Program-made: the position numbers and the translations under genes
Shown: piece after piece, positions 5,334-49,067 of the stretch
Layout of the letters: every line of letters begins with the position of its first letter
Numbering within the stretch: position 1 is the stretch's first letter
The notes under the pieces: generated by a model
What the model saw: only the letters and a program-made list of their open reading frames with translations
Told to the model about the DNA's origin: nothing
Databases searched by the model: none
Origin: Escherichia coli
GTDB taxonomy: Bacteria; Pseudomonadota; Gammaproteobacteria; Enterobacterales; Enterobacteriaceae
NCBI RefSeq assembly: GCF_013315695.1
Contig: NZ_CP054353.1
Length of the DNA stretch: 64,000 nt
Strand: one strand, 5' to 3'

Positions 5334-6158
5334 TTACAGCGCCAGCGCACTGGCGAGTGGTGTAACACCGAAACGCTGGCCGAGCGCTATCAGCTCTTCA
5401 CGACTGATGGTCTGTTTCATGCCGCCCATCGAATAAACCTTCACTAATACTTGTGCTGATTTTTCTGCGGTGTCGATTAAACCGAATGTTTCATCCAGTG
5501 TCGGACCGCTGCCGAAGACGCCGTGGAAGGGCCACAACACCAGCGAATGTTTTTGCATTTCCTGTGCGGTCGCCTGGCCGATTTCGTCCGTGCCGGGCAC
5601 CATCCACGGCAAAATGCCGACGCCATCCGGGAACACTACCAGACACTCGGTGCTGCCTTCCCAAAGCTGGCGAGTGAAGAGCGCGGTGTCGTTTTCCAGT
5701 ACGTAGGTAAGGGCGATCAGGTTGGTGGCGTGGCAGTGCATGATCACCCGATCTTTACCGTTGGTAGCTTTAATGCGCTCGCAGTGGGAGAGAAAGTGAG
5801 CCGGAAGTTCAGAAGTTGGAACGGCTTCGTTGGTTAGCCCCCAGAGAATATGGTAGCCCGCGCCGTCGCTGTCGACTTTTACGATGCCTAAGTTAGCCGC
5901 AGGATCAAGCTGGACGTTACGAAAGAATTTGCCGGAGCCGGTGACAATAAACGGTGTATTTGCCAGTAAAGGCATGGGCTGGCTGAGCGGGATATAGCGC
6001 GGTTGTGCATGAAAGTTGTCGTGATACGGTGCGATATCGGCGTCATCCAGGCGCAGCGTCAGGTTACCACCATTGCGCTCGTCCCAGCCTTTCAGCCAGG
6101 CGTCGGTGGTGGCTTTGATCATTCCCTGGACAAACCAGGACTGGGTAATGTTTTGCAT
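5334..6158 (-). CDS. rhaD: Rhamnulose-1-phosphate aldolase
   Basis: ORF 5334..6248 trimmed to internal Met ([37 protein letters not shown]) for 274 aa; class II aldolase; rha operon. Confidence 0.93.
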
Positions 6159-6240
6159 GTTCTGTGTTCCTGTAAATTCGGTGTTGTCGGATGCACGACC
6201 CGTAGGCCGGATAAGGCGCTCGCGCCGCATCCGGCAGTGT

Positions 6241-9253
<3,013 letters not shown>

Positions 9254-21258: not shown

Positions 21259-21364
21259 TTTCTCCAGGATAATTATCAAACCCGGTGGTTTCTCGCGACC
21301 GGGTTTTTTATTTGTCACGATTTTGCGTTACCCTTGCATCTCTTTGAGGTACAGGGAAAAAAAG

Positions 21365-41419: not shown

Positions 41420-42580
41420 ATGACGCGTAAACAGGCCACCATCGCAGTGCGTAGCGGGTTAAATGACGACGAACAGTATGGTTGCGTTGTCCCTCCCATC
41501 CATCTTTCCAGCACCTATAACTTTATCGGATTTAATGAACCGCGCGCGCATGATTACTCGCGGCGCGGCAACCCAACGCGCGATGTGGTTCAGCGTGCGC
41601 TGGCAGAACTGGAAGGCGGTGCTGGTGCAGTACTTACTAATACCGGCATGTCCGCGATTCACCTGGTAACGACCGTCTTTTTGAAACCTGGCGATCTGCT
41701 GGTTGCGCCGCACGACTGCTACGGCGGTAGCTATCGCCTGTTCGACAGCCTGGCAAAACGCGGTTGCTATCGCGTGTTGTTTGTTGATCAAGGCGATGAA
41801 CAGGCATTACGGGCAGCGCTGGCAGAAAACCCCAAACTGGTACTGGTAGAAAGCCCAAGTAATCCATTGTTACGCGTCGTGGATATTGCGAAAATCTGCC
41901 ATCTGGCAAGGGAAGCCGGGGCGGTGAGCGTGGTGGATAACACCTTCTTAAGCCCGGCATTACAAAATCCGCTGGCATTAGGTGCCGATCTGGTGTTGCA
42001 TTCATGCACGAAATATCTGAACGGTCACTCAGACGTGGTGGCTGGCGTGGTGATTGCTAAAGACCCGGACGTTGTCACTGAACTTGCCTGGTGGGCAAAC
42101 AATATTGGCGTGACGGGCGGCGCGTTTGACAGCTATCTGCTGCTACGTGGTTTGCGAACGCTGGTGCCGCGTATGGAGCTGGCCCAGCGCAACGCGCAGG
42201 CAATTGTGAACTATCTGCAAACCCAGCCGTTGGTGAAAAAACTGTATCACCCGTCGCTGCCGGAAAATCAGGGGCATGAAATTGCCGTGCGCCAACAAAA
42301 AGGCTTTGGCGCAATGTTGAGTTTTGAACTGGATGGCGATGAGCAGACGCTGCGTCGTTTCCTGGGCGGGCTGTCGTTATTTACGCTGGCGGAATCATTA
42401 GGGGGAGTGGAAAGTTTAATCTCTCACGCCGCAACCATGACACATGCAGGCATGGCGCCAGAAGCGCGTGCTGCCGCCGGGATCTCCGAGACGCTGCTGC
42501 GTATCTCCACCGGTATTGAAGATGGCGAAGATTTAATTGCCGACCTGGAAAATGGCTTCCGGGCTGCAAACAAGGGGTAA
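41420..42580 (+). CDS. metB: Cystathionine gamma-synthase
   Basis: ORF 41243..42580 trimmed to MTRKQATIAVRSGLNDDEQYGCVVPPIHLSSTYNF for 386 aa; PLP-dependent. Confidence 0.95.
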   Translation: MTRKQATIAVRSGLNDDEQYGCVVPPIHLSSTYNFIGFNEPRAHDYSRRGNPTRDVVQRALAELEGGAGAVLTNTGMSAIHLVTTVFLKPGDLLVAPHDCYGGSYRLFDSLAKRGCYRVLFVDQGDEQALRAALAENPKLVLVESPSNPLLRVVDIAKICHLAREAGAVSVVDNTFLSPALQNPLALGADLVLHSCTKYLNGHSDVVAGVVIAKDPDVVTELAWWANNIGVTGGAFDSYLLLRGLRTLVPRMELAQRNAQAIVNYLQTQPLVKKLYHPSLPENQGHEIAVRQQKGFGAMLSFELDGDEQTLRRFLGGLSLFTLAESLGGVESLISHAATMTHAGMAPEARAAAGISETLLRISTGIEDGEDLIADLENGFRAANKG

Positions 42581-42582
42581 AA

Positions 42583-45015
42583 ATGAGTGTGATTGCGCAG
42601 GCAGGGGCGAAAGGTCGTCAACTGCATAAATTTGGTGGCAGTAGTCTGGCTGATGTGAAGTGTTATTTGCGTGTCGCGGGCATTATGGCGGAGTACTCTC
42701 AGCCTGACGATATGATGGTGGTTTCCGCCGCCGGTAGCACCACTAACCAGTTGATTAACTGGTTGAAACTAAGCCAGACCGATCGTCTCTCTGCGCATCA
42801 GGTTCAACAAACGCTGCGTCGCTATCAGTGCGATCTGATTAGCGGCCTGTTACCCGCCGAAGAAGCCGATAGCCTTATTAGCGCTTTTATCAGCGATCTG
42901 GAGCGCCTGGCGGCGTTGCTCGACAGCGGTATTAACGACGCGGTGTATGCAGAAGTGGTGGGCCACGGTGAAGTGTGGTCGGCGCGCCTGATGTCTGCGG
43001 TACTTAATCAACAAGGGCTGCCAGCGGCCTGGCTTGATGCCCGCGAGTTTTTACGCGCTGAACGCGCTGCGCAACCGCAGGTTGATGAAGGGCTTTCTTA
43101 CCCGTTGCTGCAACAGCTACTGGTACAACATCCGGGCAAACGTCTGGTGGTGACCGGGTTTATCAGCCGTAACAACGCCGGTGAAACGGTGCTGCTGGGG
43201 CGTAACGGTTCCGACTATTCCGCGACACAAATCGGTGCGCTGGCGGGTGTTTCCCGCGTAACCATTTGGAGCGATGTCGCCGGGGTATACAGTGCCGACC
43301 CGCGTAAAGTGAAAGATGCCTGTCTGCTGCCATTGCTGCGTCTTGATGAAGCCAGTGAACTGGCGCGTCTGGCGGCCCCCGTTCTTCACGCCCGTACTTT
43401 ACAGCCAGTATCCGGTAGTGAAATCGACCTGCAACTGCGCTGTAGCTACACGCCGGATCAAGGTTCCACGCGCATTGAACGCGTGCTGGCCTCAGGTACT
43501 GGCGCGCGTATTGTCACCAGCCACGATGATGTCTGTTTGATTGAGTTTCAGGTGCCCGCCAGTCAGGATTTCAAACTGGCGCATAAAGAGATCGACCAGA
43601 TCCTGAAACGTGCTCAGGTGCGCCCACTGGCGGTTGGCGTACATAACGATCGCCAGTTGCTGCAATTTTGCTACACCTCAGAAGTCGCTGACAGTGCGCT
43701 GAAAATTCTCGACGAAGCGGGATTACCTGGCGAACTGCGCCTGCGTCAGGGGCTGGCGCTGGTGGCGATGGTTGGGGCGGGCGTAACCCGTAACCCGCTG
43801 CATTGCCACCGCTTCTGGCAGCAACTGAAAGGCCAGCCGGTCGAATTTACCTGGCAGTCCGATGACGGCATCAGCCTGGTGGCAGTACTGCGCACCGGGC
43901 CGACCGAAAGCCTGATTCAGGGTCTGCATCAGTCCGTCTTTCGCGCGGAAAAACGCATCGGCCTGGTATTGTTCGGCAAGGGCAATATCGGTTCCCGCTG
44001 GCTGGAACTGTTCGCCCGTGAGCAGAGCACGCTTTCGGCGCGTACCGGCTTTGAATTTGTGCTGGCAGGCGTGGTGGACAGCCGCCGCAGCCTGTTGAGC
44101 TATGACGGGCTGGACGCCAGCCGCGCGTTAGCCTTCTTCAACGATGAAGCGGTCGAGCAGGATGAAGAGTCGCTGTTCCTGTGGATGCGCGCCCATCCGT
44201 ATGATGATTTAGTGGTGCTGGACGTTACCGCCAGCCAGCAGCTTGCTGATCAGTATCTCGATTTTGCCAGCCACGGTTTCCACGTCATCAGCGCCAACAA
44301 ACTGGCGGGAGCCAGCGACAGCAATAAATATCGCCAGATCCACGACGCCTTCGAAAAAACCGGGCGTCACTGGCTGTACAATGCCACTGTCGGTGCGGGT
44401 TTGCCGATCAACCATACCGTGCGCGATCTGATCGACAGCGGCGATACCATTTTGTCGATCAGTGGGATCTTCTCTGGCACGCTCTCCTGGCTGTTCCTGC
44501 AATTCGACGGTAGCGTGCCGTTTACCGAGCTGGTGGATCAGGCGTGGCAGCAGGGCTTAACCGAGCCTGATCCGCGTGATGACCTTTCCGGCAAAGACGT
44601 GATGCGCAAGCTGGTGATTCTGGCGCGTGAAGCGGGTTACAACATTGAACCGGACCAGGTGCGTGTTGAATCACTGGTGCCAACCCATTGCGAAGGTGGA
44701 AGCATCGACCATTTCTTTGAAAATGGCGATGAACTTAATGAGCAGATGGTACAACGGTTGGAAGCGGCCCGTGAAATGGGGCTGGTGTTGCGCTACGTGG
44801 CGCGTTTCGATGCCAACGGCAAAGCGCGAGTAGGCGTGGAAGCGGTGCGAGAAGACCATCCGCTGGCATCACTACTACCGTGCGATAACGTCTTTGCCAT
44901 CGAAAGCCGCTGGTATCGCGACAACCCGCTGGTGATCCGCGGGCCAGGTGCAGGGCGCGATGTCACCGCCGGGGCGATTCAGTCGGATATTAACCGTCTG
45001 GCGCAGTTGTTGTAA
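42583..45015 (+). CDS. metL: Bifunctional aspartokinase II / homoserine dehydrogenase II
   Basis: 810-aa ORF directly after metB. Confidence 0.96.
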   Translation: MSVIAQAGAKGRQLHKFGGSSLADVKCYLRVAGIMAEYSQPDDMMVVSAAGSTTNQLINWLKLSQTDRLSAHQVQQTLRRYQCDLISGLLPAEEADSLISAFISDLERLAALLDSGINDAVYAEVVGHGEVWSARLMSAVLNQQGLPAAWLDAREFLRAERAAQPQVDEGLSYPLLQQLLVQHPGKRLVVTGFISRNNAGETVLLGRNGSDYSATQIGALAGVSRVTIWSDVAGVYSADPRKVKDACLLPLLRLDEASELARLAAPVLHARTLQPVSGSEIDLQLRCSYTPDQGSTRIERVLASGTGARIVTSHDDVCLIEFQVPASQDFKLAHKEIDQILKRAQVRPLAVGVHNDRQLLQFCYTSEVADSALKILDEAGLPGELRLRQGLALVAMVGAGVTRNPLHCHRFWQQLKGQPVEFTWQSDDGISLVAVLRTGPTESLIQGLHQSVFRAEKRIGLVLFGKGNIGSRWLELFAREQSTLSARTGFEFVLAGVVDSRRSLLSYDGLDASRALAFFNDEAVEQDEESLFLWMRAHPYDDLVVLDVTASQQLADQYLDFASHGFHVISANKLAGASDSNKYRQIHDAFEKTGRHWLYNATVGAGLPINHTVRDLIDSGDTILSISGIFSGTLSWLFLQFDGSVPFTELVDQAWQQGLTEPDPRDDLSGKDVMRKLVILAREAGYNIEPDQVRVESLVPTHCEGGSIDHFFENGDELNEQMVQRLEAAREMGLVLRYVARFDANGKARVGVEAVREDHPLASLLPCDNVFAIESRWYRDNPLVIRGPGAGRDVTAGAIQSDINRLAQLL

Positions 45016-46109
45016 TCCTGAGCCAGAGAAAGCAGTATTTGCGTAACGCGCCCTGCGGAAAGCGGGGTGCTGTGAGTAAATACTGCTTGTTTATGTAGCC
45101 AGTCGATAAAATGTCTGCTGGTTGCGAAAGAGAGCATTACAGCTTTGCTGTTATTTCCGCCCGTTAATGCACATACCATTTTACGATTTTTGCCCTGAAC
45201 CCAGAGTTGCCACTGATTTTTCCACCAGCCGTGATAAGTTTTTCCCTGAAAACGCCAGGGCGTATTATCGGTATAGTCAGCTATTTCCTCTTCAATAAAC
45301 CAAATTTCACCTTGCTGTTGGCGAAACAGTTCTGCCCAGGCCGTAATAATCGCACCTCTTAAAAAACACTCGTGTGAAATTACATGTGTTTTTACTGTAG
45401 GGAATAAAATATTCAGTACTCTAAAATGCCCGTGCGCTGTGATAACCGGACGCAGAATAACACCTTTAGCATTGCGTTTGAGCGCTGCGCTGCCATACTG
45501 AATTTCATCAAACTGACTGCGGCGTAGAAATTGTGCTTCGCGCATATCAACGCGTTGTACAATATTACTCTCGTGTAACTCTGGTTCTGCATTTCCTCTG
45601 TATCGATAATACAGACTTTCTCCAGCCTGATGCTGCGTGTAATTAGTAGAAAGATGAAGAATATTACCGCGAAGAGCATCAAAACTGATTAAAACATACA
45701 GTTTCTGCCCGCCGCTGGCTCCCTGAAATGGCACCAGAAGAGCAACCGTTTCGATTATTTCAGGAGGCGTTATTTCTTTCTGATATTGTTTAGGTGTCCA
45801 GACTTTTTTGCAGTTACGACATTGAATGCGTTGCGACCCCTGTGGATTGTGGCCATAACAAATCGTCTTTGTGCCATAACATACCGGGCAGAAATGACCT
45901 TTCTCAGTTGCAAAAGTAGATAAGTGAACTGACAACCAGTCACGAAATTGCTGTTCGTCAAACAACGGCGGGTAACTTCCACATGCCCGACAGTGCAGTG
46001 CCGGATAACCCAGTCGATAGTCTGGCCAGCTGTAATCTGTCGAAGTTGGCTGCCCTAAATTACGGCAACCAAACGACTTGCAGGCATTAATCGTAAACAG
46101 AGTCGACAT
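44979..46109 (-). CDS. Uncharacterized protein with two N-terminal CxxC...CxxC zinc-ribbon-like motifs; absent from the K-12 metL-metF junction
   Basis: 376-aa ORF; Cys pairs in CKSFGCRNLG ... CRACGS and CPVCYG ... CRNCKK; 3' end overlaps the metL 3' end by 37 bp (convergent); no confident family assignment. Confidence 0.5.
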   Translation of the reverse strand: MSTLFTINACKSFGCRNLGQPTSTDYSWPDYRLGYPALHCRACGSYPPLFDEQQFRDWLSVHLSTFATEKGHFCPVCYGTKTICYGHNPQGSQRIQCRNCKKVWTPKQYQKEITPPEIIETVALLVPFQGASGGQKLYVLISFDALRGNILHLSTNYTQHQAGESLYYRYRGNAEPELHESNIVQRVDMREAQFLRRSQFDEIQYGSAALKRNAKGVILRPVITAHGHFRVLNILFPTVKTHVISHECFLRGAIITAWAELFRQQQGEIWFIEEEIADYTDNTPWRFQGKTYHGWWKNQWQLWVQGKNRKMVCALTGGNNSKAVMLSFATSRHFIDWLHKQAVFTHSTPLSAGRVTQILLSLAQDYNNCARRLISD

Positions 46110-46235
46110 ATATCACCAACGATTTCACAAGGTCGTTGATTTTGTCCGGCAACGCTCCCTTGTGGATGTGATTGCTCTCACATAAATAATTCTTTCAGAA
46201 CGTAATGTAGCAATCCTTTATCTCACTGGAAGGGA

Positions 46236-47795
46236 TTGTTTATGAAAATTAAAATGCTTGCTGCGGGTATCGCATTAACACTGCCGTTTTGGGCTTGCGC
46301 CAAAGATGTCACCATCATTTATACCAACGACCTCCATGCACATGTAGAGCCTTATAAAGTGCCGTGGATTGCTGACGGTAAACGAGATATTGGCGGCTGG
46401 GCAAATATCACTACGCTTGTTAAACAAGAAAAAGCTAAAAACAAAGCGACCTGGTTTTTTGATGCGGGTGACTATTTTACCGGGCCGTATATCAGCAGCC
46501 TGACTAAAGGCAAGGCGATTATCGATATTATGAATACCATGCCATTCGATGCGGTCACTATAGGTAATCATGAATTTGATCACGGCTGGGACAATACGTT
46601 ATTACAGTTGAGTCAGGCAAAATTCCCGATTGTGCAGGGTAATGTTTTTTATCAGAACAGCAGTAAATCATTCTGGGATAAGCCCTATACCATCATTGAA
46701 AAAGACGGCGTGAAAATTGGCGTGATTGGTTTGCACGGTGTATTTGCCTTTAATGATACGGTATCTGCGGCAACGCGAGTGGGTATTGAGGCGCGTGATG
46801 AAATTAAATGGCTACAACGTTATATCGATGAACTCAAAGGCAAGGTTGATTTGACCGTTGCGCTGATTCACGAAGGTGTTCCGGCCCGCCAGTCCAGTAT
46901 GGGGGGCACAGATGTGCGCCGCGCACTGGATAAAGATATTCAGACGGCAAGTCAGGTGAAAGGGCTGGATATTTTGATCACCGGGCATGCACATGTGGGT
47001 ACGCCGGAACCGATTAAAGTCGGCAATACGCTCATCCTCTCCACTGACAGCGGTGGGATTGATGTCGGTAAACTGGTACTGGACTACAAAGAGAAGCCGC
47101 ATGATTTTACGGTGAAAAACTTCGAGCTTAAAACCATTTACGCCGACGAGTGGAAGCCCGATCCGCAAACAAAACAGGTGATCGACGGCTGGAATAAAAA
47201 GCTTGATGAAGTGGTGCAACAAACGGTCGCGCAATCGCCGGTTGAATTAAAACGTGCCTATGGTGAATCGGCTTCCCTCGGGAACCTGGCGGCTGATGCT
47301 TTACTGGTAGCGGCGGGTAAAAACACCCAATTGGCGTTAACCAACTCTGGCGGCATTCGCAATGAGATCCCCGCAGGGGCGATTACGATGGGCGGCGTCA
47401 TCAGTACCTTCCCGTTCCCCAACGAACTGGTGACGATGGAACTCACGGGTAAACAATTACGCAGTTTGATGGAACACGGCGCAAGTTTAAGTAATGGCGT
47501 TTTACAGGTATCGAAAGGCCTGGAAATGAAGTACGACAGCAGCAAACCGGTTGGTCAGCGGGTAATCACACTGACTCTGAATGGCAAACCCATTGAAGAT
47601 GCGACAGTTTATTCTATTGCCACCCAGAGTTTCCTTGCTGATGGTGGAGATGGTTTTACCGCCTTTACCGAAGGGAAAGCGCGTAACACAACGGGCGGTT
47701 ATTACGTTTATCACGCCGTGGTTGATTACTTCAAAGCGGGTAACACCATCACGGATGAACAGATCAACGGTATGCGCGTGAAAGATATCAAGTAA
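46236..47795 (+). CDS. Secreted bifunctional metallophosphatase / 5'-nucleotidase-like protein (UshA/CpdB family)
   Basis: 519-aa ORF; signal peptide [20 protein letters not shown]; calcineurin-like motifs DLHAH, GDYF, GNHEFD, GHAH; C-terminal 5'-nucleotidase-type motif NSGGIR. Confidence 0.7.
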
Positions 47796-48103
47796 AAGTA
47801 CGTATTGAGTTGATTCATTTGTTTGTTACCCGTTGATTTTGCAGATCCAGTATTCGGCCTACGCGAGGGCGCAGGCCGAATCAGATGCCTTAGCATCACC
47901 ATCCGGTGGCAGGACGTTGTTTTTCGAATAAGCCCAGGTGTCGCTGTGTTGTCAGAATATCAGTCAAAACGTGCGAGGTGGATTGCGCTATAGAGAAATC
48001 TTTTATCGCCTCTAATTAAGATGAGTTTTTTTCAACTTCCCTGATTTTTCCTCACCATCATTGGTCATTTTTCGGTTGACGCCCCTCGGCTTTTCCTTCA
48101 TCT

Positions 48104-48150
48104 TTACATCTGGACGTCTAAATGGATAGATGTTCACAACACAACATATA
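48104..48150 (+). promoter_or_regulatory. metF promoter met-box array
   Basis: acatctggacgtctaaatggatagatg contains GACGTCT-type repeats about 50 bp upstream of metF. Confidence 0.6.
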
Positions 48151-48173
48151 ACTACAAGCGATTGATGAGGTAA

Positions 48174-49067
<894 letters not shown>

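Follow-up and report, generated by a model that had tools for sequence, protein, structure and literature searches.

A convergent overlap between metL and a zinc-ribbon gene at the Escherichia coli metL-metF locus, a likely scar of an old deletion junction

Results

Genes and features of the metL-metF interval

We analyzed a 64,000-nt stretch of E. coli DNA (contig NZ_CP054353.1), hereafter called the window, in which metL ends inside an oppositely oriented gene, referred to here as hyp. The following features are considered:

42583..45015, plus strand: metL, bifunctional aspartate kinase/homoserine dehydrogenase II, 810 aa, intact, stop codon TAA at 45013..45015.
44979..46109, minus strand: hyp, a 376-aa "cytoplasmic/hypothetical protein", stop codon TGA at 44979..44981, with N-terminal IS1 InsA-type zinc ribbons and then a predicted RNase H-like, transposase-like fold.
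44979..45015: convergent overlap of metL and hyp in phase (123:213), third codon positions facing each other.
44982..45008, minus strand: NCARRLISD, the C-terminal tail that hyp has in place of the native tail of its family, to which it is not homologous; 9 codons, antisense to metL codons.
45009..45016: junction with the 8-nt microhomology GTTGTAAT; metL ends G-TTG-TAA-T, and the opposite strand carries the hyp Asp-Tyr-Asn codons GAT TAC AAC.
45017..48026: accessory segment of 3010 bp with hyp and a 5'-nucleotidase gene, replacing 197 bp of the K-12-type metL-metF spacer.
45030..45088, plus strand: very stable hairpin (arms 45030-45056 and 45062-45088), candidate intrinsic terminator of metBL, beginning 14 nt past the metL stop codon and lying within hyp.
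46110..46241: divergent control region of hyp and the nucleotidase gene, 132 nt, with two conserved inverted repeats, ATGTGAGA..TCACAT and CAACGACC..ATCGTTG.
46242..47795, plus strand: UshA-like bifunctional metallophosphatase/5'-nucleotidase (Pfam matches and annotation), the constant partner of hyp.

The two genes share 37 nt tail-to-tail, as read directly in the sequence and as the first-pass annotation had described. RefSeq annotates both CDSs with this overlap, as metL and WP_000105527 ("hypothetical protein"), in NZ_CP033850, a 99.9% identical genome. That annotation had also considered that the true C-terminus of one gene might differ from the predicted reading frame, and had named a metL C-terminus altered relative to the reference as evidence against its reading. 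Neither was the case. metL closes with the same 11 residues, QSDINRLAQLL*, in K-12-type, B2-type, Citrobacter and Pseudocitrobacter sequences, which rules out an altered metL C-terminus. A mis-called hyp end was ruled out as well, since there is no in-frame stop codon earlier than 44979..44981 and the length of 376 aa is common to the E. coli protein clusters returned by our search. The dN of metL relative to the K-12 type is 0.001, and across comparisons metL gave dN values of 0.001-0.04 and dS values of 0.13-1.1. Both overlapping frames are real protein-coding genes, and the C-termini given here are those predicted from their sequences.

Distribution and age of the overlap

The metL-metF locus exists in three states among 5426 complete E. 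coli genomes, 3578 of which are of the K-12 type, about 1180 of the window type and 659 of the B2 type. In the B2 type, tsx and two nucleotidase genes intervene between metL and hyp, and a perfect terminator follows metL. The 197-bp spacer is private to the K-12 type, with no detectable homology to any other locus type. In the unfused locus of C. freundii (that is, one in which hyp does not run into metL), a 35-nt gap separates the two genes and the hyp tail reads into a REP element, while E. albertii, Klebsiella and Enterobacter carry the hyp module without metL as a neighbor. The spacing between hyp and the nucleotidase gene is constant, at 132-133 nt, in every locus examined, and the control region between them is highly conserved. 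The N-terminus of the nucleotidase looks, by inspection, like a signal peptide.

The identical 37-nt overlap was found in Pseudocitrobacter cyperus, Escherichia sp. E2593, a non-Escherichia enterobacterial metagenome contig and another E. coli allele. Relative to Pseudocitrobacter, dS is 0.80 for metL, 1.03 for hyp and 0.69 for the nucleotidase gene; the junction is shared with taxa at a metL dS of 0.76-0.80 from the window, and alleles within E. coli differ by a dS of 0.16-0.25. The arrangement is old and shared, and not the recent insertion that had been supposed. The accessory segment does combine a presence/absence polymorphism with an atypical composition (GC of 0.463 vs 0.566 in metBL), but it has no hallmarks of recency or mobility. 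It encodes no integrase, and a search for terminal inverted repeats at its ends, made with a mobile element in mind, found none. An Rfam scan of 44000..48400 (E <= 1) returned nothing relevant, and a consensus promoter/terminator scan flagged weak sites only. Divergence from K-12, 1-2% in metB, climbs to 8-9% over the final 500 nt of metL. As a test for co-transfer of the metL 3' end with the cassette from an L017-like donor, we examined its last 243 nt; the identity was 0.901 against a baseline of 0.885, a small margin.

The junction lies at the metL stop codon

Alignment to K-12-type genomes, which had been proposed as the way to locate the breakpoint, shows that homology ends at 45016, one base past the metL stop codon, and resumes at 48027. 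Homology of the B2 type to hyp begins at 45022. The microhomology sets the resolution of the breakpoint at 45009..45016. The Klebsiella hyp allele has the codons GAC TAC AAC (reverse complement GTTGTAGT), and the metL end GTTGTAGT is matched by the reverse complement AGTTGTAGTCC of that allele. The consensus GTTGTA(A/G)T forms the end of metL and, read as its reverse complement, gives GAY-TAC-AAC. The Tyr-Asn codons of hyp are the antisense of the last Leu codons of metL together with bases one and two of the metL stop codon. In all, hyp finishes with 11 codons of antisense metL.

An insertion within the 3' end of metL, with the reading frame running on into older sequence, had been offered as an explanation. 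Its second half holds, as hyp does extend into old metL sequence; YNNCASRLISD is already encoded antisense to the metL end in K-12-type genomes. Its first half does not, as metL has kept its sequence and the junction coincides with the stop codon or directly follows it.

The hyp tail changes character at this point. Y366 and N367 do not vary among 24 hyp homologs with identities as low as 62%, and in a 54-member family alignment that reaches down to about 20% identity, the conservation of N367 is still at least 90%. Native tails of the family follow the pattern x-K-L-T-x-x-x-S-G-D/E, to which the fused tail, NCA[SR][RL]LISD, is unrelated. All substitutions within the overlap, those behind the R/S and R/L variants of the hyp tail included, are synonymous in metL, and some are non-conservative in hyp. 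It is thus metL that dictates the 37 shared nucleotides, and the new hyp tail drifts passively.

An overlap of this kind had been judged unusual for a recently inserted gene. Stop codons occupy 27 of the 810 codons in this antisense phase of metL, and reading through at least 11 codons from a random position has a probability of P = 0.68. The length is therefore ordinary, about what chance gives. The placement of the junction precisely at the metL stop codon is not random, and the junction is conserved across genera.

hyp is under purifying selection

The dN/dS of hyp is 0.08-0.26, over dS values that reach more than 2, and about 130 residues are invariant, all Cys among them. It is a real gene under purifying selection. 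The predicted model (pLDDT 94.7) is confident up to residue 370, and pLDDT falls to 64 for residues 371-376; it shows a transposase-like, RNase H-like fold preceded by an N-terminal zinc ribbon. D144, D201 and E247 are invariant among close homologs, and only E247 reaches at least 90% conservation in the 54-member alignment. No Pfam transposase catalytic domain matched hyp, and a search of solved structures by sequence with the family profile retrieved nothing but generic zinc-finger matches.

hyp resembles IS1 InsA and IS1595-type zinc-ribbon proteins and DDE (RNase H-fold) transposases, from which it differs in having a median of one place per complete E. coli genome, no terminal inverted repeats, no catalytic domain match and a constant pairing with nucleotidase genes. 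In these respects it is more like a domesticated protein than the gene of a mobile element.

A stable hairpin is confined to fused alleles

The hairpin within hyp has a dG of -45.3 kcal/mol (z -5.06), and none of 200 shuffled sequences was as stable. It ranks second in stability among 21,314 60-nt segments of the window (rank fraction 0.0002). The structure is compound, with a 13-bp outer stem, which is AU-rich, and an 11-bp inner stem. It is followed by GUUUAUGU at 45089-45096, an interrupted U-run in which 5 of 8 positions are U (7 of 10 when the two closing U are counted). A simple consensus scan does not call it as a terminator. The hairpin was present in 5/5 fused alleles (z -3.5 to -7.0) and absent from 7/7 unfused homologs examined (z -1.1 to +1.2), despite nearly the same encoded peptide, and it needs residues that are specific to the fused hyp alleles (A343, V344 and P349). 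It should be noted that the five fused alleles share one ancestry, so that for the association of the hairpin with the fusion they count, in effect, as a single evolutionary event.

The U-rich run is also present in unfused homologs, because it encodes a conserved Y/H-K-Q. No clear compensatory substitutions were seen in the stem across the fused alleles. On the hyp strand, the complementary hairpin is also followed by a U-rich run (UUUCUCU) and may cause some premature termination of hyp. A terminator for hyp was sought inside metL, past the hyp stop codon; the minus-strand fold of 44880..45030 was not distinctive (z -1.78). Judging by its position and fold, the plus-strand hairpin is probably the relocated terminator of metBL.

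Discussion

A probable old deletion scar and a probable relocated terminator

We consider it likely that an old junction, formed by illegitimate recombination or deletion, left the overlap as its scar and that the hairpin in hyp ends metBL transcription. A hyp-nucleotidase module would have stood convergent to metL, and the DNA from the metL stop codon to the Asp-Tyr-Asn codons of hyp would have been deleted through the 8-nt microhomology GTTGTA(A/G)T. The native hyp tail of about 10 residues, the hyp stop codon and the spacer would have been lost together, the spacer being the region that holds a terminator or REP hairpins in other locus types. hyp would then read antisense metL for 9 codons, up to the first in-frame stop. 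Since no intergenic space is left, the strong hairpin within hyp most likely terminates metBL; on the hyp transcript, translating ribosomes would keep it from acting. It is important to note that the ancestral sequence could be rebuilt only from homologs of 62-80% identity, because our searches found no close relative of the window allele in the unfused state.

A more specific version of this history can be put forward tentatively, and we regard it as possible but somewhat doubtful as a whole. It holds that a one-directional metBL terminator evolved de novo within hyp after the spacer was lost, and that hyp is a domesticated IS1-like transposase acting as a regulator. The terminator would have arisen partly through A343, V344 and P349, substitutions selected for RNA structure and not for protein function. 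Ribosomes on hyp would melt the hairpin, and those halting at the metL stop codon 14 nt upstream would let it fold. hyp itself would control the nucleotide-scavenging module via the two conserved palindromes at 46110..46241.

Alternative explanations

The overlap could instead be a neutral junction scar and nothing more, with the hairpin a codon by-product of the hyp allele and metBL ended by Rho or further downstream. The chance-like overlap length, the drifting hyp tail, the stem without compensatory pairs, the imperfect U-run passed over by the terminator scan and the prior existence of the U-rich run in unfused homologs all agree with such an origin. They leave unexplained why the second most stable of all folds compared (z -5 to -7) lies directly past a stop codon for which no other terminator is available, why it is missing from seven unfused homologs that encode nearly the same peptide, and why it depends on residues specific to the fused alleles. 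We regard this explanation as unlikely.

Selection for antisense, excludon-like cross-regulation is very improbable. Transcript pairing and cleavage, or polymerase collision, would couple methionine status to the nucleotidase module. The concept is established for neighboring bacterial genes (PMC7154746, PMC12288877), the arrangement has been kept across genera at a dS of about 0.8-1, and the transcripts would overlap by at least 37 nt, a figure that rises to about 115 nt with a metBL end past the hairpin. However, the module works without a metL neighbor in E. albertii, Klebsiella and Enterobacter and with spacers in C. freundii and B2 E. coli, there is no evident functional link between methionine synthesis and 5'-nucleotidases, and persistence is equally explained by a deletion having no way to revert.

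That hyp is a decaying or non-expressed mobile-element remnant, 3'-truncated by the junction, and the overlap an annotation artifact can be practically dismissed: the transposase-like fold with its IS1-type zinc ribbon, the low GC (0.449; GC3 0.401) and the lost native tail would fit, but a remnant would not combine purifying selection over such divergence with invariant Cys, a full-length product in the E. coli protein clusters returned by our search, a confident model up to residue 370, a single copy per genome lacking terminal inverted repeats, and constant synteny with the nucleotidase gene across a highly conserved 132-nt control region.

Relation to known systems

Among prokaryotes, a known kind of convergent overlap forms when a gene loses its stop codon and its frame runs on to the next one (Lillo and Krakauer 2007, PMC2174442). 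The metL-hyp pair shares with the pairs described there its orientation, its scale of tens of nucleotides, the lost native stop codon, the unchanged neighbor and a length that fits a neutral model. Under the deletion-junction reading, it differs in that the stop codon was lost with the whole tail and the spacer at an 8-nt microhomology, and not by a point mutation. Its phase, (123:213), is also the rarest one, at 18%, among convergent overlaps of more than 4 nt (PMC2174442), and its junction leaves the conserved Tyr-Asn of hyp, the extended gene, in place.

Where convergent genes overlap, a rho-independent terminator has to sit in the coding sequence of the partner. The hairpin in hyp is like such terminators, and like bidirectional ones, in having a stable stem and a U-rich run past the stop codon, inside the other gene. 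It differs in being a candidate predicted from sequence, in its compound stem and interrupted U-run, and in apparently having arisen in coding sequence after spacer loss, through allele-specific amino-acid changes.

The same chromosomal site corresponds to the genomic region "GR 31 metL..metF" of B2 extraintestinal pathogenic E. coli (BEN2908; PMC12928451), which has the same hyp family and a UshA-like nucleotidase adjoining metF. GR 31 differs in that genes for a Tsx-like channel and two further nucleotidases separate metL from hyp. Its hyp ends in a tail of the native type (ESLTPSC) without overlapping metL, its metL has a perfect terminator of its own, and the two hyp alleles are only about 80% identical in protein.

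Biological significance

The overlap is routine, yet it offers a clean and datable case in which a microhomology junction, the loss of a dispensable tail and passive extension into antisense sequence can be followed together. The resulting sequence conflict was won by metL, whose synonymous changes rewrite the hyp tail. In E. coli, the metL-metF site has long been polymorphic, with three states, and other genera share this polymorphism. The hairpin, found only in fused alleles, would exemplify in nature how a terminator can evolve inside coding sequence. Always paired with putatively secreted 5'-nucleotidases and Tsx, hyp may be a domesticated transposase that regulates nucleotide scavenging in Enterobacteriaceae, extraintestinal pathogenic E. 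coli among them.

Structure and origin of the metL-hyp overlap

The 37 nt common to metL and the minus-strand ORF hyp were confirmed by the ORF coordinates and by the RefSeq record of a 99.9%-identical genome, in which both overlapping genes are annotated, the second as WP_000105527 ("hypothetical protein").

42583..45015, plus strand: metL, 810 aa, stop codon TAA at 45013..45015
44979..46109, minus strand: hyp, 376 aa, stop codon TGA read from 44979..44981

Complete E. coli genomes present three states of the metL-metF interval, of which the long type has already been published as "GR 31 metL..metF" (PMC12928451).

States of the metL-metF interval in complete E. coli genomes
K-12 type: short spacer with a private 197-bp stretch; 3578 genomes
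Window type: hyp (minus) and a UshA-like 5'-nucleotidase (plus); about 1180 genomes
Long type (B2 strains, e.g. ABU 83972 and IHE3034): metL, tsx-like (minus), two nucleotidases (minus), hyp (minus), nucleotidase (plus), metF; 659 genomes

Homology between the window and the K-12 type extends to 45016, one base beyond the metL stop codon, and resumes at 48027; therefore, 3010 bp in the window replace 197 bp in the K-12 type. Against the long type, metL is homologous up to its stop codon and hyp from 45022. The last residues of metL (QSDINRLAQLL*) are identical across all locus types and genera examined, and metL is untouched by the junction. The first-pass annotation had proposed that an insertion landed inside metL or that one of the two C-termini was wrongly called. 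Neither proposal was supported. Its suggestion that the ORF extends into old sequence was right, the hyp tail being the antisense of the metL end.

The conserved core of hyp ends at Tyr366-Asn367. Both residues are invariant in 24 sequences, and N367 retains at least 90% conservation when 54 members with identities down to about 20% are aligned. The family tail that follows is short and variable, with the consensus x-K-L-T-x-x-x-S-G-D/E (ESLTPSC in the B2 E. coli allele), and the window tail, NCARRLISD, is unrelated to it. The codons of Y366 (45012..45014) and N367 (45009..45011) lie antisense to the last Leu codons of metL plus the initial two bases of the metL stop codon. GTTGTAAT (45009..45016) is at once the metL end and, in reverse complement, GAT-TAC-AAC (D-Y-N). 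In Klebsiella, an unfused allele, in which hyp keeps its own tail, reads GAC TAC AAC, and the reverse complement of this, GTTGTAGT, is the metL end in TAG-stop alleles. In K-12-type genomes, the strand opposite the metL end already contains the peptide YNNCASRLISD in latent form. The simplest reading is that this 8-nt microhomology was the site of a deletion or illegitimate junction, through which hyp lost its native tail and stop codon and the spacer disappeared, the hyp frame then continuing to the first available stop. A second, independent replacement of the family tail is found in Citrobacter freundii (about 7100..7211 in loci L006 and L007), where the ORF runs past Y-N into a REP/BIME element and has the tail ..LPGGAAAYRAYGSCHM.

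In the overlap (phase 123:213), the third codon positions of the two genes lie opposite each other. Among the five fused alleles, in which hyp runs into antisense metL, all substitutions in the shared 36 nt are synonymous in metL, and the hyp tail carries non-conservative changes at two positions (R/S and R/L). Confidence in the hyp structure model is high up to about residue 370 and falls to a pLDDT of 64 across the last six residues; the tail behaves like a passenger that hyp could do without. Nothing special is needed to explain how long the overlap is, because an open run of at least 11 codons in this metL antisense phase has a probability of 0.68.

Age and distribution

An identical 37-nt overlap was called in four more places: Pseudocitrobacter cyperus, Escherichia sp. 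E2593, another E. coli allele, and a metagenome contig whose metL is as distant from E. coli as that of Pseudocitrobacter. Between the window and Pseudocitrobacter, dS was 0.80 (metL), 1.03 (hyp), and 0.69 (nucleotidase), so that metL and the module share a divergence of roughly inter-genus depth. With this distribution and divergence, the recent insertion proposed earlier is not supported. The label "accessory" is fair, since the segment is AT-richer than its flanks (GC 0.463 vs 0.566), but "recent" is not. Synteny of the module with metL extends to C. freundii, where the gap is 35 nt, and to C. farmeri, where other genes intervene; in E. albertii, Escherichia sp. E3659, Klebsiella, and Enterobacter, the module sits elsewhere.

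Across 41701..45016, the window departs from K-12-type genomes by 1-2% of nucleotides in metB, rising to 8-9% over the final 500 nt of metL, which suggests that the metL 3' end is part of a divergent haplotype to which the accessory module is linked; a search for a specific donor of this end identified none. The Pseudocitrobacter hyp allele (L004 6001..7134) has a mosaic appearance when set against L003 4814..5938 and the window: over its first ~300 residues it is similar to the B2 E. coli allele (dS 0.55), and over its last ~70, as at the metL junction, to the window allele. This pattern points to probable intragenic recombination.

Nature of hyp and its module

Homologs at 62-98% identity, annotated simply as "cytoplasmic protein", are spread across Enterobacteriaceae, with dN/dS of 0.08-0.26 and dS up to saturation, and about 130 residues, including all cysteines, are invariant in 24 sequences. 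hyp is a genuine gene whose tail has been replaced. Its predicted structure contains, with high confidence, InsA-type zinc ribbons and an RNase H-like, transposase/integrase-like core. The gene is present in single copy, no terminal inverted repeats were found at the segment ends, and no Pfam transposase catalytic domain matched hyp. The family is small (147 clusters at 50% identity, searched among 1.8 billion proteins). At every locus, a spacer of 132-133 nt separates hyp from a UshA-like nucleotidase in divergent orientation, and further nucleotidases and Tsx often accompany the pair. hyp looks like a domesticated transposase, and a reasonable guess is that it is a candidate regulator of this nucleotide-scavenging module.

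46110..46241, 132 nt: divergent hyp-nucleotidase region, better conserved than its coding flanks (E. coli, Pseudocitrobacter, Citrobacter)

This region contains two inverted repeats, ATGTGAGA-N-TCACAT and CAACGACC-N8-ATCGTTG, the latter immediately before the hyp start codon; candidate roles for them are operators or a 5'-UTR hairpin. A separate 13-bp inverted repeat, ATTCGGCCTACGC/GCGCAGGCCGAAT (47852..47881), lies ~57 nt after the nucleotidase stop codon and may be a nucleotidase terminator or a REP-like element. In Escherichia sp. E3659 (L010), the usual hyp-adjacent nucleotidase gene is not called, leaving a gap of ~1 kb (5972..7000), and shortly past hyp, close to kdsA, there are Ldr-type toxin ORFs (8280..8763).

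A hairpin within the hyp coding sequence

A compound hairpin lies within hyp codons 343-362, 14 nt after the metL stop codon.

45030-45056 and 45062-45088, plus strand: hairpin arms, by folding

Its predicted stability (dG -45.3 kcal/mol, z -5.06) was equaled by none of 200 dinucleotide shuffles and ranks second among 60-nt folds at 21,314 positions of the 64-kb window. The most stable such fold, at 30172..30231, consists of two adjacent perfect hairpins and is probably a bidirectional or tandem terminator.

The hairpin after metL is present in all five fused alleles (z -3.5 to -7.0), which share one ancestry, and was not found in the seven unfused homologs examined (z -1.1 to +1.2), whose encoded peptide is almost identical; the fold relies on Ala-Val 343-344 and Pro349, which are specific to the fused alleles. 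Other locus types carry ordinary structures after metL: in B2 strains a perfect stem that has A and U tracts, in Citrobacter REP pairs. GUUUAUGU follows the hairpin directly. The U-run there is interrupted, a consensus terminator scan did not call the hairpin, and no compensatory pairs were seen in its stem. A mirror-image hairpin with UUUCUCU is present on the hyp strand. In attenuation, the ribosome suppresses a hairpin within a translated region; in translated hyp, the element would therefore be effectively one-directional. We infer that this hairpin is probably the metBL terminator, relocated into the coding sequence of the partner gene, in agreement with the published argument that terminators of convergently overlapping genes must fall within coding sequence.

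The overlap is real, old, and mechanistically ordinary, a convergent overlap arising from the loss of one gene's end with the neighbor unchanged, and only the hairpin and the nature of hyp go beyond the routine.
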